Under the pieces are notes generated by a model that saw only the letters and a list, made by a program, of their open reading frames with translations, was not told the DNA's origin and searched no databases. Below are positions 5,190-20,235 of a stretch of 24,000 nucleotides of DNA, in pieces. Every line of letters begins with the position of its first letter. The first letter of the stretch is position 1. The stretch is from Candidatus Heimdallarchaeota archaeon (lineage in GTDB: Archaea > Asgardarchaeota > Heimdallarchaeia > Heimdallarchaeales > Heimdallarchaeaceae). The stretch spans positions 144,210 to 168,209 of the forward strand of contig JAUVXV010000004.1 of the NCBI GenBank assembly GCA_030603365.1. The letters are read 5' to 3'. The position numbers and the translations under genes are program-made.

Positions 5190-6221
5190 TTAGACTTCCT
5201 CCTTTATCATTGTTCGCTCACGCATAGTTTCTTCACCTATATGAAGGTCTAATTCTTCAAAGTGATGACATGCAACTCTACGGCTCCTGCCAAAATTATG
5301 CTCAGGGGGACGAATACGAGAACAAATTTCGGTGGCATACTTGCATCTAGGATGGAATCTGCAACCTTTTGGTGGATTGATAAGTCTTGGAACGTTACCT
5401 GGAATTGTTACCAATCGTGTTTTATCTTTCTCTAAACTTGGAATACTCTCGAAAAGTGCGTATGTATAAGGATGTGCTGGATTAAGAAATATGTCTTCAG
5501 TATATCCTGATTCAACAACTCGACCTCCGTAGAATATGTGCACTCTTTTTGTAATTTCAGCTACTACTCCAAGATTGTGTGTAATGAGCATCATACCTAA
5601 TCCTAGCTTCTGTTGCATCTCCTTAATAATTTCAAGAACTTGTGCTTGAATTGTTACGTCCAAAGCAGTGGTGGGTTCATCAGCAATTAGTAAACTTGGT
5701 TGCAGAGCTAGTGCTCTTGCTATGAGTATTCTTTGCCTCATACCCCCACTGAATTGATGTGGGTAATCAGTTATACGGGTTTCAGGTTCAGAAATTCCAA
5801 CTTGATCTAGCGATTCAATAGCTAGCTCTAATGCTTCTTTCTTACTACATTTCCTATGGAGAGCAATAACTTCTGTCATCTGATCAGCAATCCTGAAGAT
5901 AGGATTTAAGCTTGTCATAGGGTCTTGGAAAATCATAGCTATCTCTTTTCCTCTAATTCTTCGCATCTGAAGATCTGGTAATTCAAGTAGATTTACTCCT
6001 TTGTAGATTATTTCCCCTGAAATTGTTTTTCCATTTTTAGGTAGAATTCTGAGTGTTGAATGTGCTGTCACAGTCTTGCCACAGCCAGATTCCCCTACAA
6101 TTCCAACAGGTTCTCCTTTCATAACATCAAAGGATACTCCATCTAAGGCCTCTACTATACCAGATTCGGTGTAGAAATAGGTATATACATCATTAAGTTC
6201 TAATATTGGTTTTTCGGTCAC
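5190..6221 (-). CDS. Oligopeptide/dipeptide-type ABC transporter ATP-binding protein (OppD/DppD-like)
   Basis: Walker A GESGCGKTV, signature FSGGMRQR, Walker B LIADEPTTALD, and a C-terminal CRFHPRC...C...CH extension. It lies 1 nt upstream of the next ATPase gene. Confidence 0.92.
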   Translation of the reverse strand: MTEKPILELNDVYTYFYTESGIVEALDGVSFDVMKGEPVGIVGESGCGKTVTAHSTLRILPKNGKTISGEIIYKGVNLLELPDLQMRRIRGKEIAMIFQDPMTSLNPIFRIADQMTEVIALHRKCSKKEALELAIESLDQVGISEPETRITDYPHQFSGGMRQRILIARALALQPSLLIADEPTTALDVTIQAQVLEIIKEMQQKLGLGMMLITHNLGVVAEITKRVHIFYGGRVVESGYTEDIFLNPAHPYTYALFESIPSLEKDKTRLVTIPGNVPRLINPPKGCRFHPRCKYATEICSRIRPPEHNFGRSRRVACHHFEELDLHIGEETMRERTMIKEEV

Positions 6222-6227
6222 TTTGTA

Positions 6228-7490
6228 TCACTCTCTCAATCTTGGATCTAAAGCATCCCTTAATGCATCTCCTAGTAAGTTAAACGCCAATACTACGAAG
6301 AATATAGCGAAACCAGGAAGCAAAGCTAACTCTGGATTCGTTTTCAATACTGTTTGTGCATCATTAACCATCTGTCCCCAAGAGATTGTCGTTGGACTTC
6401 CTAAACCAAGGAAAGTCAATCCTGCTTCTGCAAGGATTCCTCCTGCGATAGAGATTGTTGCTATAACAATAATTGGTGCTAAGATATTAGGCAGAATATG
6501 AACTAAGATAATTCGCCTATTACTCGCCCCCAATACTCTTGCTGCATTAACGTAATCTAAATTGTAAATTTGCCGCGTGTTCGCACTTACTAGCCTACAT
6601 AATCCCGCCCAACCGAATACACCAAGTACTACGATGATAACGATCGATTGCGGAATTTGTCTCAAGAAAACTAATCTTCCTCTTCTAATGAAGGAAACAG
6701 CTAGAATTGCAATCACAAGAAATGGTAATGCAAGAAACATATCTGTTAATCTCATGATTATTTCTTCTGTCCAACCTCTGTAATATCCTGCTAAAGCACC
6801 TAATGTAACTCCAATCAATACTGCGAGTATTGATGAGAATACTCCAACAGTTAGAGATACTTCACTTCCTGCTAATAATCTTGAGAATTCATCTCTTCCT
6901 AGTACGTCAGTTCCTCCAGGATATTTTAAGTTAGGATTAGCGAGGGAACCTCCTCCATTCCAAGCATCGAATAAGGGTTCAGTCATTACAGGACTGAAAG
7001 GCATTATTATTGGATAAACTATTGCTAAGATAGTAATTCCAATTACAAGTACGCCAGATAATATCGCCACTTTGTTTTTACTATATCTTCTCCAAACTAG
7101 TGACCATTGGGATGGACTTCTTTCCCTTAGAGTTCCATCTTTTGCAATGATAACTTCTTTCTTAGATGTTGTTCTTTTGTAATATCCCCATGCGAATTTG
7201 GCGCCAACCCAGATTAGGGCCAATACTACTACGAAAATGAAGTACATATACCAACCTGTTGCTGATCCAAAGCCGACATTCTTTACTGAGACCCCAAAAA
7301 GTGGTACAATAACTCCAACTACTAATACAATACCTAAAAACTCTACAATATAATTTAGATAGTAATGTTTCCAAAGTATTGCTAGTTTGCCAACCCAAGA
7401 CATTGATTTAGGTAATCTGTTTTCTACTAGATATTCGTCTAATCTTTCAGCGAAAGATAATTTTGTTGTTTCTGCTGCTACTCTTTGCAT
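6228..7490 (-). CDS. Opp/Dpp-type ABC transporter permease (OppC/DppC-like) with an extra N-terminal membrane segment of about 125 aa
   Basis: The C-terminal roughly 295 aa has the typical OppC layout (WRRYSKNKVAILSG... and the EAA-loop region YVNAARVLGASNRRII). The N-terminal roughly 125 aa adds hydrophobic helices not needed for a canonical OppC. Confidence 0.88.
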   Translation of the reverse strand: MQRVAAETTKLSFAERLDEYLVENRLPKSMSWVGKLAILWKHYYLNYIVEFLGIVLVVGVIVPLFGVSVKNVGFGSATGWYMYFIFVVVLALIWVGAKFAWGYYKRTTSKKEVIIAKDGTLRERSPSQWSLVWRRYSKNKVAILSGVLVIGITILAIVYPIIMPFSPVMTEPLFDAWNGGGSLANPNLKYPGGTDVLGRDEFSRLLAGSEVSLTVGVFSSILAVLIGVTLGALAGYYRGWTEEIIMRLTDMFLALPFLVIAILAVSFIRRGRLVFLRQIPQSIVIIVVLGVFGWAGLCRLVSANTRQIYNLDYVNAARVLGASNRRIILVHILPNILAPIIVIATISIAGGILAEAGLTFLGLGSPTTISWGQMVNDAQTVLKTNPELALLPGFAIFFVVLAFNLLGDALRDALDPRLRE

Positions 7491-7505: not shown

Positions 7506-10118
7506 TCATAGTTCTATTCGAGGGTCTACTGCCACATAAACAATATCTGTTATCAGATTTCCTAGTAATATTAATATTGTAAGCAATGCTGTCGTTCCCA
7601 GTATCATTGGAAAGTCTAATAGGATCACCGCGCTTACATACTTGAATCCTAATCCTGGCCACGTAAAGAGTGTTTCAGTGATTGGAGCTCCTGCAAGTGC
7701 TGTAGCTAGAAATAGTCCAATGTAAGTAACAACTGGAATTAAAACATTCCTGAAAGCATGTCTCCAAGTAATGGATCTTTCTGAAAGTCCATTTGCTCTA
7801 GCTGATAAAATATAATCTTGTCGAAGAACCTCAAGCATTGTTGATCTAACCAATCTGGTATATAATGCAATAGATGCAAATGTTAATGCAATGATTGGTA
7901 AGACCATATGGAGCATTGAATCTAACAATCTTTCCGACACATTCGCCCACCACGTAGACATATTCCCTGACCAGAATAAACTCCAATTCGTATCACTGAA
8001 TACTGGCATGGGTGCTGGTACACGATGAGCTTTTGCAGCTGGGAACCAGCCCAGACCATATCCACTAAATATGTAAATCAATAATAATCCAAACACAAAA
8101 ATTGGCATTGAAAGACCTAATAGTGCAAATGCACTAGCTGCTGAATCAATCCATGAATTTTGATTTTTTGCTGCTAAAATTCCTAGAGGAATTGCTATTA
8201 AGAGGGCAAACACAAATGATGCCAATTGAAGTTTTAGTGTTTCCCAAACTAATCCTCCAATCATGTCATTAATAGATTGACCAGATTGGAAGCTAGTTCC
8301 CATATCTCCGTGAAGCAGGTTGTAAAACCAAACTACAAATTGTACATAGATTGGTTGATCTAAGCCTAATTTCCGCGTCAGATTTAATCTATCTGCTTCC
8401 GTTACTCTTTGTTTTCCTAGAAGAAGTAAAGTTACTGGGTCTCCCATTCCACTAACCATTACAAATGTCATAACACATATCGCTATGAACAGAGGAATGA
8501 GGGTCAGCAATCTTCTTGTAATATATGTTGTTAATCTTAAAGTAGCAACATTCTTAATCCATTTAATTACACCAGTCTCACCTACTCTTCTAGTCATTGT
8601 TGAATCTGAGGGTTTTTGCCAGTCAACGGGTAAGAAAATACCTGTGAGCATCACAAAGATTCCTATCACAAACAAATAGAAACCTGGTTCAATAGTTCCT
8701 GTAAGAGCTATGTTGAAGAAAGCAGGATTCGAATCATTAGGATTAAAGGTTATCGGGCTGAAGGTTATCGCATCTTGTCCAGAAATAATCGCTTCATATC
8801 TTCCAGCAGCAATTATCATCGATCTATTCATCGCTAGAATTGCGGCTACAAGCGATGTAAGCAAGAGAATACCACCGGCTATATCGGCAATTATACCTCT
8901 TGATTTTAACTCTCCACTTTGGAATACTTGTCCTAAAACAATCGCCATAAGAGCAAAGAGAATAGTAAACCAAACAGCAGCTGCTAAGATTATTATGCTA
9001 CTAGGTGTTTCTGCTTGTAAAAATCTTGCTTGTGTTATGTTATCTGCGCTGTCATAGGTTATGAGTCTATAATCAACACTAAAACTATATATTTCAACAA
9101 GGTTTCCAAAACTATCTTTATTGTAACGTGGTCTCACACTATAAACTTCTAAACCTGTTCCTGATTCAGCCACATATGCATATCCATCTATAACAAACAA
9201 TGCAACTGACTCTGCAGAAGTGTTATATGAACCTGCACTTTGTAAAACAACTGGGTTAATAATTGAAACAATGTGTAACCCATAGCTTGAATCAGTAATA
9301 TAGGCGTGTTCATTATCTATATCTATCCCTTTAACATCTCCTGAAACATCATATTGATTCCCGAATATTGGGACTTCTGGATTTGTCAAGTTAACAGATT
9401 GCAATCCGAAGTTTGCACCTACAATATATGCATAATCACCTTGAACATCAACATCATACACAGGATTACCTGCTTCATATGTTCCAATTAAAGTTGGATC
9501 GGTTGGATCACTCACATTCAAGACATGTAATCCTACTGTTGAATCTACAACATATGCAACGTCCTCTTGAACTACTACGCTATTTACATCACCAGAAATA
9601 CTGTATGTGCCTTCTTGAGATGGTGTTGCTGGAGTACTTACATCAAGTATTTGTAATCCTATTGTTGAATCTACAACATAAGCATAGTCGTTTAAAACAT
9701 ATACATTGTTCGCACCGCCAGCGATGCTATAAGTTCCTAAACTTGTTGGTGTTGTTGGATCTGTTACATCTACAGTTTGTAACCCTGTATTGGTATCAGC
9801 AATGTAAGCAACATTATCTGCAACAAATATACCATTGGAACTACCCGTTATACTGTAAATTCCAATAATGTCTATTGTCTGTGCATCAGTTACATTTACA
9901 ATAACTAATCCTGAATCAGAATTCAAAACATATGCAAAGCCACCATCATAATAAACTGCTGTTAAATTACCTACAATGATTTGTGTATTTTCAAGTACAA
10001 TGGGTTCTGGTTCTGCAGAAGTTGAATCAAAATCAAGACCATACAAAGGTACAAAAGCTGCGATAAAAATAAGAGCAAAACCAACAATTTTAAGAGAAAT
10101 TGCTACACTTTTATCCAT
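7506..10118 (-). CDS. Fusion protein: signal-anchor + seven LVIVD-repeat beta-propeller + extra TM segments + OppB/DppB-type ABC permease
   Basis: 870-aa ORF. Residues 1-27 form a hydrophobic anchor. Residues 50-330 hold seven GL[VQH][IVT][VL][NDS]V-type LVIVD repeats at exactly 42-aa spacing. Residues 372-500 are hydrophobic helices. From about residue 528 (ITRRLLTLIPLF...) to the end is a canonical OppB permease, including SARANGLSERSI (EAA loop). Confidence 0.88.
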   Translation of the reverse strand: MDKSVAISLKIVGFALIFIAAFVPLYGLDFDSTSAEPEPIVLENTQIIVGNLTAVYYDGGFAYVLNSDSGLVIVNVTDAQTIDIIGIYSITGSSNGIFVADNVAYIADTNTGLQTVDVTDPTTPTSLGTYSIAGGANNVYVLNDYAYVVDSTIGLQILDVSTPATPSQEGTYSISGDVNSVVVQEDVAYVVDSTVGLHVLNVSDPTDPTLIGTYEAGNPVYDVDVQGDYAYIVGANFGLQSVNLTNPEVPIFGNQYDVSGDVKGIDIDNEHAYITDSSYGLHIVSIINPVVLQSAGSYNTSAESVALFVIDGYAYVAESGTGLEVYSVRPRYNKDSFGNLVEIYSFSVDYRLITYDSADNITQARFLQAETPSSIIILAAAVWFTILFALMAIVLGQVFQSGELKSRGIIADIAGGILLLTSLVAAILAMNRSMIIAAGRYEAIISGQDAITFSPITFNPNDSNPAFFNIALTGTIEPGFYLFVIGIFVMLTGIFLPVDWQKPSDSTMTRRVGETGVIKWIKNVATLRLTTYITRRLLTLIPLFIAICVMTFVMVSGMGDPVTLLLLGKQRVTEADRLNLTRKLGLDQPIYVQFVVWFYNLLHGDMGTSFQSGQSINDMIGGLVWETLKLQLASFVFALLIAIPLGILAAKNQNSWIDSAASAFALLGLSMPIFVFGLLLIYIFSGYGLGWFPAAKAHRVPAPMPVFSDTNWSLFWSGNMSTWWANVSERLLDSMLHMVLPIIALTFASIALYTRLVRSTMLEVLRQDYILSARANGLSERSITWRHAFRNVLIPVVTYIGLFLATALAGAPITETLFTWPGLGFKYVSAVILLDFPMILGTTALLTILILLGNLITDIVYVAVDPRIEL
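9129..9971 (-). repeat. Intragenic tandem repeat: 7 x 126-nt (42-aa) LVIVD blades
   Basis: The GL-x-hydrophobic-x-V motif falls at residues 70, 112, 154, 196, 238, 280 and 322. At the DNA level, tcctactgttgaatctacaacata (9531) and tcctattgttgaatctacaacata (9657) are exactly 126 nt apart with one mismatch. Confidence 0.85.
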
Positions 10119-13379: not shown

Positions 13380-13877
13380 TTAATATTCAGTTAATGTGCC
13401 GATTCTTAAATTATCATCATTCTCAAACAAATCTAGTTCTATAATGGAGTTCATCTTTTCTCTACCTAATAGTTGGGTAATCATATAATAATCAGATGGA
13501 ATAATATTCTCTTTTTCGACAGATATTTCTTCTTTAGTAAACCATCGTAATTCTCCTTCGGCAGTTTCTTTCAATATATCTGAATCTGCTATAGTTAAAC
13601 AAAGAATAATTAAGAATTGTTTATGTGTTTTAGCAGTTATCCCGTCTTTCAATTTCTCATTCAAAATAGCTTTTATCCCCTTCCATTTAACAGATAAGCC
13701 TGTTTCCTCTTGTATTTCTCTAAGAAGTGCTTCTCTAATTCCTTCATCAAAGTTCATTTTTCCTCCAACTAAAGCCCATTTTTGTTGATAGTCTCCCCTT
13801 TTTCTTTTGATAAGTAACCACTTATTATTGCGTTCAATCCCTCCTATAACTATGTTAAGAATTCGTTTTTGTTCCAT
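13380..13877 (-). CDS. Nudix hydrolase
   Basis: A complete Nudix box, GKMNFDEGIREALLREIQEETGL, matches Gx5Ex7REUxEExGU. Confidence 0.88.
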   Translation of the reverse strand: MEQKRILNIVIGGIERNNKWLLIKRKRGDYQQKWALVGGKMNFDEGIREALLREIQEETGLSVKWKGIKAILNEKLKDGITAKTHKQFLIILCLTIADSDILKETAEGELRWFTKEEISVEKENIIPSDYYMITQLLGREKMNSIIELDLFENDDNLRIGTLTEY

Positions 13878-13987
13878 TATTAAGTTCTAAAACATTATAA
13901 TTCTAAACTTTTACTCTAGTATTTTAAAAATCTTTAAAGTCATAACATTCTTAAACATTCAAAGTTCATGCTCTTTAGCGAAGCCCA
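13878..13987. promoter_or_regulatory. Divergent promoter region (Nudix gene leftward, five-gene operon rightward) with several TATA-like boxes
   Basis: 110-nt AT-rich intergenic spacer containing ttttaaaaat (13923-13932), ctttaaag (13932-13939) and cttaaacatt (about 13950-13959). No transcription start can be assigned from sequence alone. Confidence 0.35.
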
Positions 13988-14590
13988 ATGACTAACTTCA
14001 TTCAGAATTTCAGACGTTCAATTCGTAGGAAACTAGGCTACCCAGAAGTTTCTATCCTTGTTTTAGGAGATAATAATCCTGCTACTAGGAATCGGGCTCT
14101 ACTAACTAAATCAGAAACATCTCTTAATGAGTTTATCATTGATAACTCTTTAGTAGAACTGCCTTATGCTTTGAACTTTAAATTCAAACATAATCTATTT
14201 GTTCCATTTGAAGGCTTACTGTATTTCATTGATTCAACAAAAGAAGAAATGATAAAACATGAAAGAAATTTCCTTTGGGAGAAAATCGTCTGGAATGCTG
14301 AAACTCAGAATTTACCTATTGCTCTCTGCGCATATAACTCAAATTTACAAGGAGCATTATCCAGAGGGGAATTAATAGAAAATCTTTCTTTGATTCGATT
14401 AACAGATAGACTCTGGAATCTCTTTGAGACACCAGAAGTGCCATCTATAATTGAAGCACTAAAGTGGCTGAAAAAGGTAATTCATATAGGCTATGTTAAG
14501 TCATGGGAAGAAAAAGAAAAATTATTATTAAAAATTAAACCTGTAGAAATTCAGATCACTACAGAAGAAGAAAATGATCTAGATGTATAA
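13988..14590 (+). CDS. Arf/Arl/Sar-family-like small GTPase fold protein with all nucleotide-binding motifs degenerate (candidate pseudo-GTPase)
   Basis: By-eye alignment to eukaryotic Arf1, recalled from memory. ILVLGDNNPATRN aligns with ILMVGLDAAGKTT (P-loop lost). GLLYFIDSTKEE aligns with GLIFVVDSNDRE. IALCAYNSNLQGALSRGELIENLSL aligns with [25 protein letters not shown] (NKxD becomes YNSN). EALKWLKK aligns with EGLDWLSN. No DxxGQ equivalent is present. Confidence 0.6.
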   Translation: MTNFIQNFRRSIRRKLGYPEVSILVLGDNNPATRNRALLTKSETSLNEFIIDNSLVELPYALNFKFKHNLFVPFEGLLYFIDSTKEEMIKHERNFLWEKIVWNAETQNLPIALCAYNSNLQGALSRGELIENLSLIRLTDRLWNLFETPEVPSIIEALKWLKKVIHIGYVKSWEEKEKLLLKIKPVEIQITTEEENDLDV

Positions 14591-14607: not shown

Positions 14608-16158
14608 ATGACACTCTCAATACAGAATTTAATGAAAGACGGGTATGAAGGATTTTCCGTTAGATCGATTTTAATGAATCCTGAATTCCGAGACAGAGTT
14701 TTAAAAGATGTTAGCGTAAGAGGAAACGAAGTAGGTAAGAACCTTGTGATGGATAAACTCGCAGTTGGTGGAAAGGTTCTACTTACAGGTCCAACCGGTG
14801 AAGCTAAAACACTGTTTGCTAGAGTACTACTTGACCATTTAGTCAGAGAAATCAACAATTTCAAATACCACATAGCTGATTGTCCATTTTTAGAAGATGC
14901 TGGATATATCATTGATATTATAGAAAACTTTCCTGCAAATCCTTTTGCTGGTATTCGTGTTATGCAATCCCTATGTCCTTATTGTAGGAATAACATTGAA
15001 ACTATTCTATCAAAAGATGGAAACGTTGTTCAACTAGATAACACCAACAGTGTTCTAGAAATTTCTCCAAAGGAAATAGTAAGTAGATTAGGAAAACTGG
15101 AAGCAGGTAAAACAACTGTTCGTAGATCACAACTAGACCCAAGAACTGATCCTGAAAGTCTTTATATGTTATTGGCTGGAGTTGAAAACTTAGAAGAATT
15201 ATTCGGAAAAGATACTTCAACAACATTTGCAGCTACTTCACATAAAGTAGGAGTTCTATCTCACGGATTCATTGTAGTTAACGAAATCCAAAGACTCCCA
15301 CTTAGTCTGCTAGAATCCCTCATGGGTTTTCTTGAAGAACCAATGGGTATCAAGTATAACATTCAAGGAGAACCAGTTTATATCGATGGTGCAGTTCTTT
15401 TCACTTCAAATGCTCCTTTAACAGTTTTTGGAGAAGAAAGTCAACCTATTATCAATCGTATTCCTGAAGTTCTTTGGCCCGCACGTTCAGTAGAAAGCAG
15501 AGAACAAATCCTCAAAGATATGTTCGATGAACAATTAGTTCTAACAAGAAAGAAAATTACTGCTAATCCTTCAATTATTCAATTGCATGAACTTGGAAAA
15601 GAAGCAACTGACTATGTAAGCAGACTAGCACTGGATTTCTTGGCTTTCTTGGGAAACAATTCACTTCCTGAATCACTTAAGACCAAAGGATTACGTTCTG
15701 AAAGTAGATTGGCTCGTAATGATTTTTACTCAGGTCTTGATGAAGTTCACGACCCACAAAGGAACCCACATATTGACCTTCGTACTATGAATAACATCAT
15801 TGGAGAAACTGTGTTGTTCCAAATAAGAGAAGGCAAAGATTCAGATATAAACGTTATAACACTGGAAAAAATACGAAACACTATGGGTGCATATGATGTT
15901 CCTGCTTCAATGATAAATGATGCTTTACAACAATTAAAAATCGTTTTACGAACAGCCATTAAGGAAGCTGAAGTCTCAATCAATGTTAAAGATATATCAG
16001 AAGACATTTCAAAAATGAAAGCTTTAAGTGATGCTGAAATGTCAGAACTCATTGTAAAGTTTGAAGGTCTTGATAGATTCAAAGAGAATATTCGTAACAA
16101 AATAGTGGAAAAACTCCAATTATCATATGAACAGTTACTAAAGGTAGATTATATCTAA
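14608..16158 (+). CDS. ChlI/BchI-MoxR-clade AAA+ ATPase-like protein with variant Walker A/B motifs and a Cys/His insertion
   Basis: Walker A-like GPTGEAKT (14788-14811), Walker B-like FIVVNE (15268-15285, Asn in place of Asp), sensor-1-like LFTSN and Arg-finger-like IINRIPE. The order and spacing resemble Mg-chelatase subunit I. HIADC...CPYC sits after Walker A, where ChlI-like proteins carry an insertion. A GAGGT ribosome-binding site lies 7 nt upstream of the ATG. Confidence 0.75.
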   Translation: MTLSIQNLMKDGYEGFSVRSILMNPEFRDRVLKDVSVRGNEVGKNLVMDKLAVGGKVLLTGPTGEAKTLFARVLLDHLVREINNFKYHIADCPFLEDAGYIIDIIENFPANPFAGIRVMQSLCPYCRNNIETILSKDGNVVQLDNTNSVLEISPKEIVSRLGKLEAGKTTVRRSQLDPRTDPESLYMLLAGVENLEELFGKDTSTTFAATSHKVGVLSHGFIVVNEIQRLPLSLLESLMGFLEEPMGIKYNIQGEPVYIDGAVLFTSNAPLTVFGEESQPIINRIPEVLWPARSVESREQILKDMFDEQLVLTRKKITANPSIIQLHELGKEATDYVSRLALDFLAFLGNNSLPESLKTKGLRSESRLARNDFYSGLDEVHDPQRNPHIDLRTMNNIIGETVLFQIREGKDSDINVITLEKIRNTMGAYDVPASMINDALQQLKIVLRTAIKEAEVSINVKDISEDISKMKALSDAEMSELIVKFEGLDRFKENIRNKIVEKLQLSYEQLLKVDYI

Positions 16159-16192: not shown

Positions 16193-17578
16193 ATGCCCCA
16201 TCGAATAAATTTCGTAACTGAAGCAGAATTTGCTGATCCATTGCAACACTACAGTAACCAAGAGTTTGTTCTTGAGTTTGAAGATGCTGCTCAAGTGTTA
16301 AAATTATGGCGAAATCCACATTTGGGTAGAAGTTCTCGTGAAGGTGCAGTTTTATCCATTGCTTCTAAAAATGCTGTTGCAGTAGAAAACATAATACAGA
16401 AAATTATGAATACATACTTGACTGCTGCTGAAGAAGAACGACTAGTTAATGAAATTAAACTCCTTCGTTTTATTGGTGAACGCGTACTTCCAGATGTTTT
16501 GGAAAGAGTAAATCGTAACGAACTTCAAACAGTAGAAGATATTCTAAAGTATATTCAGGAACTTCTGAAGGAAATAAAACATGAAGGGTCTGTTGACCTT
16601 CAACGTTTAGCAGAAAAACTCAATCAACTGAAGGATATTGTAGATATTGAAATTACTGATGCTTTTGGAAGGAAAAAGAGAATCTCACGAGAAAGTGTCA
16701 TGGACCTTCTAGGGAAAATCCTCGGTAGATATTTAGTGAAACAAATATCTGTTGCACCAATTGATGAAGTTCAAAAGCGCCCTAGAGGCACAATTAGATT
16801 AAAAGAAACTTATCGTAGAGCGATATTAAGTTCTCAATCTGTTCCTCCTACTAAAGTGAAACAAGAAGATATAATGAGAGTTAAGAAAGATCGTCGATCT
16901 TTAGTGTATCTAATTGTTGATATGAGCCAATCTATGCGGAAAAGTGTTTTTGAAGGAGGGATGTCTCGTTTAGATGGGGCACTTCTTACTAGTCTCAGTT
17001 TATACTACTATTTCAAGACACTCAACAGAAGAAAAAGGAAAAGCTATGATATGTTCAAACTTGCTGTTGTTCCTATTAGAAAGAATCCTACAGTTATAGA
17101 TGGTGATAACAACATGGAGCAACTTCTACTCACAGCTGAAGCACGTGGAAAAACATATATGGTTCAAAGCGTTCTCGCTGCGATTGAGCATGCAAAAAGT
17201 CAATATATAGAGAAAGATATTGACGTTCAGTTCACAATTGTAACAGATGGAATGCCTAATGTGCCTTCTTATCCCTTCAAGCACCGCACAAATAAAGAAC
17301 TCAAGAAGTATTTCGATGAGATTGATACTAAAACTAGACCAAATACTATAGAATGCTTACTACAACTTAACGGAATCTTTTCAAGTTTAAAGAATGACCG
17401 GTCAAGAAACTGGAATGTGTCTTATTTCTTAATGGGGCCAGATTCACTAAGAAACAAGGAAATCTATATACATACCAAAAGAATGCTGAAAGGAATCACA
17501 AGGCCTATATTAGTAGACCCAGCCCAAGTTAGGAATCTTGGAGAACAGATACTAAGGGAGAGTATTTTATATGCTTAA
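16193..17578 (+). CDS. von Willebrand factor A (vWA) domain protein with an intact MIDAS motif and a helical N-terminal domain of about 230 aa
   Basis: The MIDAS motif DxSxS is DMSQS (16919-16933), preceded by the hydrophobic strand LVYLIV. A downstream Thr (GKTYM) and TDG (17243-17251) complete the MIDAS set. The position after an AAA+ gene mirrors ChlI-ChlD and MoxR-vWA pairs. Confidence 0.8.
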   Translation: MPHRINFVTEAEFADPLQHYSNQEFVLEFEDAAQVLKLWRNPHLGRSSREGAVLSIASKNAVAVENIIQKIMNTYLTAAEEERLVNEIKLLRFIGERVLPDVLERVNRNELQTVEDILKYIQELLKEIKHEGSVDLQRLAEKLNQLKDIVDIEITDAFGRKKRISRESVMDLLGKILGRYLVKQISVAPIDEVQKRPRGTIRLKETYRRAILSSQSVPPTKVKQEDIMRVKKDRRSLVYLIVDMSQSMRKSVFEGGMSRLDGALLTSLSLYYYFKTLNRRKRKSYDMFKLAVVPIRKNPTVIDGDNNMEQLLLTAEARGKTYMVQSVLAAIEHAKSQYIEKDIDVQFTIVTDGMPNVPSYPFKHRTNKELKKYFDEIDTKTRPNTIECLLQLNGIFSSLKNDRSRNWNVSYFLMGPDSLRNKEIYIHTKRMLKGITRPILVDPAQVRNLGEQILRESILYA

Positions 17579-19145
17579 AGAAGAACTTGCGGAGATAATT
17601 GTTGTTTATCAAAATGCTCGTGAGGATTTCAAAACTCTTGTAGGAGAAACTCCTGAAAATTATAGAGTTCTTATTTTTCTTGACCCTGAAATGCATGTTT
17701 CTGTTAATCGAGTGGTAGAGGTCACAGGAACTCCTCAAGCTATACTAACTTCTGAGCAGATAACAAATCTTAGATCTGCAAGGATAAGTGAATTTCTTCC
17801 TACTGGAAAAGAAACTGTCTATAATTCTCTTCCTACACTAATTTATCTATCAGTACCCTCCTACGAACTAACAATGGAGGAAGAACTGACCTTAAGAGTG
17901 ATGCTTATTCATGCTTTTGCTCATGCTCTTATGAATGAGAAAACTGAATCAAATTCAGCGAGAGTTTTGGCTCAACTATATCAATTGGATGTTATACTCA
18001 AGGAACTAATGAGTAACAATGTTTTCCAGTTGAATAAAGTATCAAAAGACAAACATGTTTGGGCTTGGCAGTATTTCCAAGATTTAATTGGTGTAATAAG
18101 ATTATTTACAGAAGCAGGTGTGGACGATTTCTATACTCCTCCTGAAGAAGCAAGAAAGTATACTCTGTTCAATAACTTTTCAATTGAAGCAATAAATCTC
18201 ATAGGAGAACGAGCAAAAACTGCAAGAAAGAAACATCTTCACGATATTATAGATGAAGGATTTGCTCATTATATACAACAAAAAGCAATAGAATACTTGT
18301 TAAAGAAAGATGAATACAAGCTTCCAAAAAGACATGAAGATAGATCCATAATATATCCAAATGGATTAAAAGCATTTTTAGCTCCTCCAGTAGGAGTTTT
18401 CAGTCAAGTAGCTATTAACAAACTTCTTACTAAATATAAAGATGAAAAGGAGATGTTTTCTAAATTATTCTCCTACAAATCTGATATAGAGTTTCTTGAA
18501 GAATTTACTTGGGATGAAATAAAGGATTTATTGGCAGTTAACAAAAATGCTCATTCAGAATATGTTGTAGATCATTGGCACTCATCAATAAGTAGATGGT
18601 CAGATATATGGTCTGTCTATGCTTATGGATGGAGGCAGATAGAAGAATACGTAAGTAAAGTTTTCAGAAGAAAATATTCTACTTTTGGTCAACTTCTTGA
18701 TGAAAATCCAAGTATTTCTTTTAAAGGATATGTTAAAGTGGATAACAAGAAAGTATATGTTTTTGAGGCTAATGATTATGGTATTGGAATAGATCAATTA
18801 GTCATTCTTCACAATCATATGTCTCTTTATAGAGATGATTTCAAAACAATTCTTCCTGCTTTTGCTGATGTGATTGTCTTTAAGAAAGTTGGAGGAATTC
18901 ATGTTGCTACTTTATTTGCAGTCCACAAGGCCAAGTATAAATCTCTCTCGCCATATAACTTACCAGTTATAACCAGGGCAGTTCAAGTGACAAAAAGAAA
19001 GGATGCATATAAGTTTGATTTAGACGAGGAAAAGGAAGCAAAATTCGAAATTAGAAATATTGACTATACACATCTCAGAAAGTTGACTCAACCTCAACGA
19101 GGTGCTATTAGTTATCTAATAAAGGAGGGGTTGTTTGAATTATGA
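17571..19145 (+). CDS. Large hypothetical protein with a zincin-like motif pair (HAFAH ... DEGFAHY); possibly an inactive gluzincin-like fold
   Basis: 524-aa ORF whose start overlaps the upstream stop by 8 nt. MLIHAFAHALMNE (HAxxH at 17910-17924) and IIDEGFAHYIQ (18252-18272) resemble the HExxH and (N)EGFAxY motifs of MA-clan gluzincins, but the catalytic Glu is Ala and the spacing is about 115 aa. Confidence 0.45.
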   Translation: MLKEELAEIIVVYQNAREDFKTLVGETPENYRVLIFLDPEMHVSVNRVVEVTGTPQAILTSEQITNLRSARISEFLPTGKETVYNSLPTLIYLSVPSYELTMEEELTLRVMLIHAFAHALMNEKTESNSARVLAQLYQLDVILKELMSNNVFQLNKVSKDKHVWAWQYFQDLIGVIRLFTEAGVDDFYTPPEEARKYTLFNNFSIEAINLIGERAKTARKKHLHDIIDEGFAHYIQQKAIEYLLKKDEYKLPKRHEDRSIIYPNGLKAFLAPPVGVFSQVAINKLLTKYKDEKEMFSKLFSYKSDIEFLEEFTWDEIKDLLAVNKNAHSEYVVDHWHSSISRWSDIWSVYAYGWRQIEEYVSKVFRRKYSTFGQLLDENPSISFKGYVKVDNKKVYVFEANDYGIGIDQLVILHNHMSLYRDDFKTILPAFADVIVFKKVGGIHVATLFAVHKAKYKSLSPYNLPVITRAVQVTKRKDAYKFDLDEEKEAKFEIRNIDYTHLRKLTQPQRGAISYLIKEGLFEL

Positions 19146-19915
19146 GTTTCCTAGATTTCTTACGCGGATTAACAATAGGAAGAAAACTAAAAAGTGAAGA
19201 TCCATTAGATCGTGCATATTTCTCTCTTTTCATACGAAGAAGAGGAAAAGCTAAGGATATTAAAAGAATTTACCCTTTGATTGAGGATTCGGATTGGAAT
19301 GTGAGAAATGCAGCAGCAGCTACCATTATAGAATTAGCTTCTAAATATCCAGAAATCAAAAAGAATGTTCTTAATCACCTTCATAATCTAATTGAAAATA
19401 GCTCTTTGGCAATTAAACTTTCTACTTTGGAAGTTTTAGGTCATCTGAAAGATTATGGTTCAAAACCTTACTTAGTTAAGATTTTGGAAGAAAGTGATTA
19501 TGATCTTCAATATGCAGCTATACGCGCAATTGGTTATTTAGATGATGTTGATGTTCTTAATCCACTTAAAAACGTAGTTTATGCAAGAGATTATATCACA
19601 AGAAGAGCAGCAATACTCTCCGTTGTCAGAATTGCAAATTCAGTTAAAGAGGAAGAACAAGTCGGAAAATTAACCGATCATATGCATATTGTAATGGAAT
19701 CTTACCTTGAATTAGAAGAGTTAGGGGAGACTATTTGTAAGATAATGGATTTTGCAGAAGTAGATAAACTACCTGAAATGAAAGGATATTCAGAATCAGA
19801 AATTGTTAAATTGGAAGGATTAATTGAGCAAAAAGATTATAGCGTTGAACTCTACCAGAATTTCGCTAGATTGATTTTTCCTGTATATTTCCCACTTGAT
19901 GAGGAGGAAAACTAG
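19142..19915 (+). CDS. HEAT-repeat (PBS-lyase HEAT-like) protein
   Basis: 257-aa ORF with an ATGA start/stop overlap with the upstream gene and AGGAGGGG upstream. Repeated helical units have the D-x-x-VR-x-x-A-x-x-x-L/G pattern: DWNVRNAAAATIIELA, AIKLSTLEVLGHLKD, DLQYAAIRAIGYLDD, ITRRAAILSVVRIAN. Confidence 0.7.
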   Translation: MSFLDFLRGLTIGRKLKSEDPLDRAYFSLFIRRRGKAKDIKRIYPLIEDSDWNVRNAAAATIIELASKYPEIKKNVLNHLHNLIENSSLAIKLSTLEVLGHLKDYGSKPYLVKILEESDYDLQYAAIRAIGYLDDVDVLNPLKNVVYARDYITRRAAILSVVRIANSVKEEEQVGKLTDHMHIVMESYLELEELGETICKIMDFAEVDKLPEMKGYSESEIVKLEGLIEQKDYSVELYQNFARLIFPVYFPLDEEEN

Positions 19916-20235
19916 AACCTTCTCCTTCTAAATTTGTCTGTGCAGAAATCCACAAACTCTTTTCCTATTTCATTCAAGTCTTTTTCTTGTTTCCATTTCT
20001 TTTCAGTATGTTCTTGTATTTCTAGACCACAAAGATGAAAACATGTTGATATTAAGGCAAATCCCATCATTCTTTCTCTAAGGTTGTCAGAATCTATCAG
20101 TTTCAAAGCTCTCTTTTGGTGGGGATTTATCACTTCAGATTCTTCGTAAAAAACTTGATCTGTCTCTGTGGTAACAATCATTATTATTATAGAATCGTTA
20201 TTTGAGTATATAAAACTACAATAAACGGTAAGCAA
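19912..20235 (-). CDS. Hypothetical protein (no recognisable motif; the start is probably an internal Met)
   Basis: This is the only long ORF in the interval. Its 3' end overlaps the convergent HEAT gene by 4 nt. It has a basic C-terminus (KFRRRRF), and I recognise no family. Confidence 0.3.
   Translation of the reverse strand: MLTVYCSFIYSNNDSIIIMIVTTETDQVFYEESEVINPHQKRALKLIDSDNLRERMMGFALISTCFHLCGLEIQEHTEKKWKQEKDLNEIGKEFVDFCTDKFRRRRF

Follow-up and report, generated by a model that had tools for sequence, protein, structure and literature searches.

The DNA analysed here, called the window below, is a stretch of 24,000 nucleotides from a Candidatus Heimdallarchaeota archaeon (assembly GCA_030603365.1, contig JAUVXV010000004.1, positions 144,210 to 168,209 of the forward strand). 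It carries a block of five genes on one strand, in the order ArfL - AAA+ - vWA - X524 - HEAT. The subject of this report is the first of them, ArfL, which encodes a protein related to the Arf GTPases in which each of the five G motifs has been changed or lost while the G-domain fold is kept. A preliminary description, made from the sequence alone, had placed an Arf-like protein of 200 aa with degenerate motifs at 13988-14590 on the plus strand; the open reading frame is present as described, with an ATG start, and the positions given for two of the motifs were exact (GDNNPATRN, residues G27-N35, at 14066-14092; YNSN, residues Y116-N119, at 14333-14344). The same description had taken an Arf-like GTPase as a sign of Asgard archaea, and the source is indeed an Asgard archaeon, of the class Heimdallarchaeia. 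The features of the gene are as follows.

13988..14590, plus strand: ArfL, candidate Arf-derived pseudo-GTPase, first gene of the block; open reading frame of 200 aa with ATG start
13991..14035, plus strand: N-terminal basic amphipathic helix, aa 2-16 (TNFIQNFRRSIRRKL), modelled as a helix at residues 2-15
14066..14095, plus strand: degenerate G1 motif (P-loop) GDNNPATRNR, equal in length to GLDAAGKTTI, from profile alignment
14132..14212, plus strand: remnant of the interswitch and switch II, aa 49-75; strand EFIIDNSL followed by a long ordered loop
14333..14344, plus strand: degenerate G4 motif, YNSN replacing NKxD, from profile alignment
14387..14410, plus strand: SLIRLTDR, signature of the family (aa 134-141), equivalent to G144-R151 of Arf1

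Fold and motifs of ArfL

The resemblance of ArfL to Arf is far beyond chance, and the homology is statistically solid. The sole Pfam match of the protein is Arf (PF00025; E 7.9e-6, 25.9 bits vs a gathering score of 22.3), limited to aa 70-163; NCBIfam gave no match for ArfL, nor for the vWA and X524 proteins described below. Among the matches listed by phmmer against the PDB, 60 of 60 were Arf, Arl or Asgard ArfR chains, the best being the Asgard protein HodArfR1 (8ouk/8oul, E 8e-6). Profiles were then compared with hhalign, using a 39-sequence alignment of the family (A2) and 20 canonical Arfs (A3). The match (99.1% probability, E 9.9e-19) runs from aa 15 to 169 of ArfL and from 12 to 181 of Arf1; therefore the N-terminal half of ArfL, unalignable by single-sequence searches, is homologous too.

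The predicted structure leads to the same family. An AlphaFold2 (AF2) model computed with 24 close orthologues alone had a predicted local distance difference test score (pLDDT) of 45 and was discarded, and adding 15 distant relatives rescued it (pLDDT 84.1, predicted template modelling score 0.79). In a Foldseek search of the PDB with this model, the Arf family accounted for all of the top 50 matches, with TM-scores of about 0.6-0.7; the first was the GDP form of HodArfR1 (8oul_A, E 1.4e-9, 191 aligned columns, TM 0.63/0.67). The model has a small-GTPase alpha/beta fold from which one strand, beta2, is apparently absent, and an extra C-terminal helix at aa 173-180. The small-GTPase fold and Arf affinity put forward in the preliminary description were thus borne out by Pfam, phmmer, hhalign and Foldseek, and its alignment by eye agrees with the hhalign mapping (G27, T33 and R34 for Arf1 G24, K30 and T31; Y116-N117-S118-N119 for N126-K127-Q128-D129).

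The same alignment was used to establish the state of each motif. In G1, the P-loop lysine (Arf1 K30) is T33 and the magnesium ligand (Arf1 T31) is R34, the glycine G24 being kept as G27. About 15 residues of the switch I/beta2 region are deleted, visible in hhalign as gaps of 10 and 5 residues; between alpha1 and beta4 the AF2 model contains a single strand (49-56) and a loop (57-75) at pLDDT 86-95. Arf1 D67, the aspartate of DxxGQ, aligns to D52, which is followed by N-S-L and by neither Gly nor Gln. The G5 segment, C159-A160-T161 in Arf1, is shortened to E-T-P-E. Direct reading of the whole 200-aa sequence found no match to GK[ST], D..G or [NT]K.D. Other residues typical of the Arf family are kept, namely D82 (Arf1 D93) and W143 (Arf1 W153). 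The replacement of G1, G3 (no DxxGQ) and G4 claimed earlier is therefore correct from both the sequence and the hhalign columns, and the degeneracy goes deeper than was stated, with G5 absent and the switch I/beta2 deletion in addition. GTP binding has most likely been lost, as predicted from these substitutions. Since beta2 is lost, the interswitch toggle of Arf proteins cannot operate in ArfL.

The nearest known relatives, by both sequence and fold, are Asgard ArfR (HodArfR1, PDB 8OUK/8OUL; GerdArfR1, PDB 8OUM/8OUN) and eukaryotic Arf/Arl. They share with ArfL a size of about 180-200 aa, an N-terminal amphipathic helix without myristoylation signal, and a core made of beta1, beta4-alpha3, beta5 and alpha4-beta6-alpha5, including the two residues above; ArfR also comes from the same archaeal class. 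The differences concern the switch and the context: in ArfR/AArf proteins the G boxes are conserved, both GTP and GDP are bound and the interswitch toggles (bioRxiv 10.1101/2024.02.28.582541, one of two Asgard Arf studies), whereas ArfL has none of G1-G5 and no switch I/beta2, carries the extra C-terminal helix and lies in an AAA+/vWA operon.

The N-terminal 15-mer of ArfL has the highest hydrophobic moment in the protein (0.70) and a net charge of +5; a moment of 0.70 was reached by 196 of 5000 shuffled sequences. In canonical Asgard ArfR a helix of this kind serves membrane association (bioRxiv 10.1101/2024.02.28.582541), and by analogy with Arf/ArfR it is plausible that ArfL binds, or is targeted to, membranes through its helix.

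Conservation of the degenerate state

ArfL belongs to a close family of 41 clusters at 60-94% identity, all of 192-202 aa except one truncated fragment of 140 aa (P0041). Their named sources are Heimdallarchaeaceae or Heimdallarchaeota, and some orthologues are already labelled 'ADP-ribosylation factor-like protein' at NCBI. In the alignment of 24 orthologues 57 columns are invariant, of which eight are substituted-motif positions (G27, T33, R34, N35 and R36 in the P-loop; C114, Y116 and N117 around G4). More than 60 clusters have an uninterrupted reading frame. The ratio of nonsynonymous to synonymous substitution rates (dN/dS, Nei-Gojobori), calculated against four orthologues, lies at 0.05-0.08 in ArfL and at 0.03-0.07 in the four partner genes, purifying selection being equally strong on both; across loci, ArfL, X524 and HEAT diverge faster than the AAA+ and vWA genes. 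The altered motifs are invariant and the gene is under purifying selection, and ArfL therefore has a derived function and is not eroding: its degenerate state is selected and not the product of decay.

Searched exhaustively with a profile, 1.84 billion cluster representatives gave 107 matches. About 24 clusters (50% identity) lack G1 and G4, mostly with the signature SLxR[LIV]xD[RSH]; the other matches are canonical Arfs or fragments, which first appear at about E 1e-6. The expression SL.R[LIV].D[RSH] is positive in most matches without a P-loop and in none of 52 canonical ones. At 18-27% identity, W97, W102, S134, L135, R137 and D140 remain invariant across this wide family; their positions, in alpha3 and the alpha4-beta6 segment, are remote from the switch face. 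None of the approximately 24 clusters contains GxxxxGK[ST]. Some distant members have a GK[TS] remnant (RVGKTS, RVGKTA), never a full P-loop, which is consistent with the family having arisen from a true GTPase. The named distant members come from Kariarchaeaceae, Heimdallarchaeota LC_2 or 'Asgard group', and no Pfam match is on record for them. Surveys of Asgard small GTPases have probably under-counted the wider family, as members of the Kariarchaeaceae type have no Pfam match.

The five-gene block and its partners

Downstream of ArfL, the window contains the following genes of the block.

14608..16158, plus strand: divergent AAA+ ATPase, 516 aa (orthologue alignment A4)
16193..17578, plus strand: vWA (von Willebrand factor A) protein, 461 aa; N-terminal half helical, vWA domain at the C-terminus with intact metal ion-dependent adhesion site (MIDAS)
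17571..19145, plus strand: X524, orphan protein of 524 aa, overlapping the vWA gene by 8 nt; conserved and colinear in all loci
19142..19915, plus strand: HEAT-repeat protein, 257 aa, last gene of the block, overlapping X524 by 4 nt (Pfam HEAT_2, E 7e-24)

ArfL had been described as leading the operon, and the distances agree: the block is tight and on one strand, its successive genes lying 17 and 34 nt apart or overlapping by 8 and 4 nt. The block is larger than the AAA+/vWA pair first noted, since it also includes the orphan 524-aa and HEAT-repeat proteins. A NUDIX gene lies 110 nt upstream of ArfL in divergent orientation. Scans for sigma-70 promoters and terminators found sites no more frequent than in shuffled sequences, the sigma-70 model not being applicable to archaea.

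Conservation of this order was examined in one genome per species (GTDB), with gene order determined by tblastn. The scan returned 28 loci, all with Heimdallarchaeota or generic archaeal titles bar one 'Thorarchaeota' and one 'Promethearchaeati'. The AAA+ gene comes next after ArfL in 26 of the 26 close-family loci having downstream DNA, and all five genes stand in order at 22 close-family loci, those with enough DNA; the HEAT gene is colinear in all loci reaching that far. Within the window's family the ArfL and AAA+ genes are on the same strand, 17-60 nt apart. The order is also kept at 60% ArfL identity in two loci (L003, L004) that have an ABC transporter upstream in place of NUDIX. In Kariarchaeaceae/LC_2 and a third lineage the block begins with more degenerate relatives: the AAA+ gene is preceded by a 170-aa protein in Heimdallarchaeota LC_2 (locus L005, E 1e-59 vs the family profile) and by a 179-aa protein in the third lineage (L009, E 9e-49), their overall identity to ArfL being only about 20-27%. 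Adjacent locus tags reveal four further pairs (HeimC2_27380/27390, OEZ01_12400/12405, ACXAD7_07245/07250, INQ03_16655/16660), HeimC2_27380 having the accession OLS23185.1.

The coupling to an AAA+/vWA pair claimed earlier holds at the level of protein families. Searched member by member, the AAA+ orthologues match Pfam Sigma54_activat (22/27), AAA_5 (18/27, best E 2e-5) and Mg_chelatase (5/27); for the window's own protein AAA_5 scores 15.5 bits vs a gathering score of 22, and only a marginal Sigma54_activat match reaches its gathering score. A profile search of the PDB found no sequence relative of the AAA+ protein among solved structures. Its motifs are Walker A GPTGEAKT (GPAGEGKS in distant members), sensor-1 FTSN and an INRIP arginine. 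The Walker B VVNE (VVNEIQRL) is invariant, with Asn-Glu instead of Asp-Glu, and a conserved cysteine cluster (C92, C123xxC126) is inserted between Walker A and Walker B. Together these two features suggest a metal-binding insert and possibly an altered ATPase chemistry. The vWA orthologues match VWA_2 (7/11) or VWA_CoxE (2/11), and their MIDAS residues (DxSxS...T...D: D243, S245, S247, T321, D352) are invariant. X524 has no match in Pfam, NCBIfam, PDB or PADLOC.

An AAA+ gene adjoining a vWA gene with intact MIDAS recalls the MoxR-type pairs (NorQ/NorD, CbbQ/CbbO, RavA/ViaA, CoxD/CoxE) and eukaryotic midasin/Rea1. Further traits in common are the AAA_5, Mg_chelatase and Sigma54_activat matches of AAA+ members and the VWA_CoxE matches of some vWA members. 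The general principle of MoxR/vWA systems is a vWA protein that presents substrates to the ATPase in a metal-dependent manner (PMC3495828, PMC9976466). The block differs from these pairs by its highly divergent AAA+ protein, with the Asn-Glu Walker B and the cysteine insert, and by its additional Arf-fold pseudo-GTPase, orphan 524-aa protein and HEAT protein; in the literature that could be searched, no small-GTPase-fold subunit was found in known MoxR/vWA systems.

Several other affiliations of the block were considered and not retained. X524 as the transglutaminase-like peptidase of a MoxR-vWA-TGL triad is not supported, as it has no family match and no invariant cysteine. An Arf-adaptin or coat relationship is not supported either: the HEAT protein scores 24 bits against Adaptin_N for a gathering score of 37, typical HEAT cross-talk. 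A COPII-like arrangement, with Sar1 and a Sec23/24 vWA-like trunk, was rejected, Sec23_trunk being found in 0 of 11 vWA orthologues at E<=0.1. So was a defence or conflict system; PADLOC returned generic AAA/HEAT noise, and the paper on MoxR-vWA conflict systems mentions no Arf or small-GTPase-fold partner of this type. UvrB and UvrC lie downstream of the block in most close genomes, and a functional link to them was rejected as synteny only, since UvrB lies elsewhere in L036/L037 and L005/L009 lack it.

Other observations concern the surroundings of the block. In L009 the next gene after HEAT encodes Robl_LC7, a roadblock protein (13507-13908); roadblock proteins are usual partners of small GTPases. 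In L041 the 1.35 kb upstream of the AAA+ block (5645-7001), at the usual place of ArfL, have no called gene, no open reading frame above 87 aa and no Rfam match. A conserved 192-aa protein, unrelated to the ArfL family, precedes the AAA+ homologue in the place of ArfL in two genomes labelled Hodarchaeota and 'Promethearchaeota' (L006 7365-7943, L010 5835-6413), where the vWA, X524 and HEAT genes are not adjacent. Two other genes are repeated neighbours of ArfL-family genes or of the AAA+ block in distant Heimdallarchaeia (L038 622-2758; L005 5640-6356; L041 5028-5645, minus strand): one encodes a ParB/Srx-like protein of ~240-250 aa with the motif LDGHHRHxGL, the other a UEV/E2-variant-like protein of ~205-221 aa. 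In L038 both directly follow an ArfL-family gene of type P0045. They may form a second conserved neighbourhood of the degenerate Arf-like family. Between the HEAT gene and UvrB, the window has a 107-aa open reading frame with a TTG start on the minus strand (19912-20235) and no family match; an 86-aa gene is called at this place in L001/L002. Farther away, at 7506-10118 on the minus strand, an 870-aa fusion combines LVIVD/beta-propeller repeats (aa ~55-280) with a permease domain of Opp-type ABC transporters (BPD_transp_1, aa 531-869), which is unusual in the membrane subunit of a transporter; its orthologue in L001 has only 585 aa.

Possible role of ArfL

With moderate confidence, we favour the view that ArfL is a nucleotide-independent adaptor or regulatory subunit with an Arf fold, belonging to a remodeller composed of the AAA+, vWA, X524 and HEAT proteins and possibly targeting it to membranes. 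As such it would neither bind nor hydrolyse GTP, would have no interswitch toggle and would be a constitutive subunit. The MoxR/chelatase-like AAA+ ATPase would power the machine, the vWA protein would act as a co-chaperone that binds the client through its MIDAS metal site, and the HEAT-repeat protein could serve as scaffold. ArfL would associate with its partners through its conserved non-switch face, formed by W97/W102 of alpha3 and the SLIRLTDR segment, and would localise or gate the ATP-driven remodeller, possibly at a membrane via its amphipathic helix. The fold, the Arf ancestry, the motif losses, the purifying selection and the conserved order of the genes are established; that nucleotides are not bound, that ArfL forms a complex with its partners and that it is targeted to membranes is inferred.

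Such a role has precedents among eukaryotic pseudoGTPases, for example CENP-M, the pG1/pG2 domains of p190RhoGAP and the G-domain of the dynein light intermediate chain. These have, like ArfL, a G-domain fold with mutated G motifs and a predicted loss of nucleotide binding, and are retained under selection; they act as structural or adaptor modules in larger complexes, the role proposed here for ArfL. Unlike ArfL they are eukaryotic and come from Ras/Rho/Rab-like or other G-domain lineages, and the top 50 Foldseek matches showed no similarity to them. Judged by its sequence, which is of Arf/ArfR descent but in which every nucleotide motif of an Arf GTPase is wanting, ArfL would work like a pseudoGTPase, a known kind of pseudoenzyme; pseudoenzymes are reviewed in PMC10211241.

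Several observations weigh against the favoured view. Co-operonic order is no proof of a complex, and linkage is not universal: family members of types P0042, P0043 and P0045 are located away from the AAA+ block, the family and the block are unlinked in L039, L040, L038, L041 and L008 (L041 having a four-gene block without ArfL within 7 kb, and L008 a solitary AAA+ gene), and the distant Asgard AAA+ homologues of L006, L007 and L010 have no ArfL neighbour. The assignment of the AAA+ protein to the MoxR clade draws on sub-threshold Pfam matches only. The model of the amphipathic helix is weak (pLDDT 62-68), and relatives of the L009 type do not conserve this helix. Finally, a P-loop of canonical length with an invariant Thr-Arg-Asn-Arg could still hold an anionic ligand.

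The family members located away from the block and the L041 block without ArfL, together with an ArfL-AAA+ spacer of 245 nt in L005, would be expected if ArfL were independent of the downstream genes and its adjacency inherited synteny without shared function; the UvrB/UvrC genes found downstream in most close genomes likewise indicate that local synteny is generally conserved. This explanation is nevertheless unlikely, because adjacency and order persist across three lineages at ~20-27% ArfL identity with both flanks changed, because ArfL stays put in L036/L037 where UvrB has moved, and because the two genes are so closely spaced on one strand in the window's family.

We hold it to be quite improbable that ArfL is a nucleotide- or phosphate-binding switch with non-canonical residues, whose ligand state regulates the AAA+/vWA machine; its ligand, a proposal just as doubtful, could be a non-GTP nucleotide, a phospholipid head group or a phosphoprotein held at T33/R34/N35/R36 of the P-loop. 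The unchanged length of this loop, its invariant replacement residues, which are polar or basic, and the GK[TS] tripeptide at the equivalent place in some distant relatives speak for such a switch. Some small GTPases without NKxD, such as IFT22, can still bind guanine nucleotides, which counts on the same side. Against it, both the P-loop lysine and the magnesium-coordinating Ser/Thr are changed, switch I is deleted with its G2 threonine, DxxG, G4 and G5 are absent, the complete absence of GxxxxGK[ST] extends to the whole wide family, and a toggle is impossible without beta2. The loss of all G motifs might suggest that ArfL is a pseudogene in decay, or what is left of a canonical ArfR, evolving fast and without function of its own, but this is effectively refuted by the selection analysis (intact frames, low dN/dS, 57 invariant columns including the substituted motif positions) and by the confident predicted fold.

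A bolder extension of the preferred reading, in which ArfL is a nucleotide-free subunit, is a long shot: the five proteins might constitute a previously unrecognised archaeal AAA+/MIDAS/HEAT complex, in which a small-GTPase fold is paired with an AAA+ protein from the clade in which dynein and midasin arose. Such a complex would be a parallel to, and perhaps kin of, eukaryotic arrangements: the Ras-like light intermediate chain and roadblock that accompany the dynein heavy chain, or Arf and its HEAT-solenoid coats.

The Arf homology of the family is not itself new, given the existing NCBI labels. Its degenerate state, the conservation of that state, the wider family and the five-gene coupling appear to be undescribed. 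Both published studies of Asgard Arfs describe G boxes that are conserved and otherwise mention only unspecified 'divergent' or 'unannotated' sequences; in the available part of the supplementary tables of the ArfR paper, neither the accessions of the family nor the LIRLTD motif was found. In the searchable literature we found no paper on archaeal pseudoGTPases or on an Arf-derived, operon-encoded example from prokaryotes. As far as that literature could be searched, ArfL would be the first prokaryotic Arf-derived pseudoGTPase.

Current work treats Asgard Arf GTPases as precursors of the membrane traffic of eukaryotes, and in every published example the G boxes are intact. If ArfL does act independently of nucleotides, the Arf fold would already have been repurposed in Heimdallarchaeia, the archaeal class closest to eukaryotes, and hard-wired to an ATP-driven AAA+/vWA machine. 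The five-gene system is compact and conserved, which suits it to co-expression and reconstitution, and it gives direct access to two questions relevant to Asgard cell biology and to the evolution of pseudoenzymes: what role an Arf fold plays once its switch is gone, and what would be remodelled by the orphan AAA+/MIDAS/HEAT machine.

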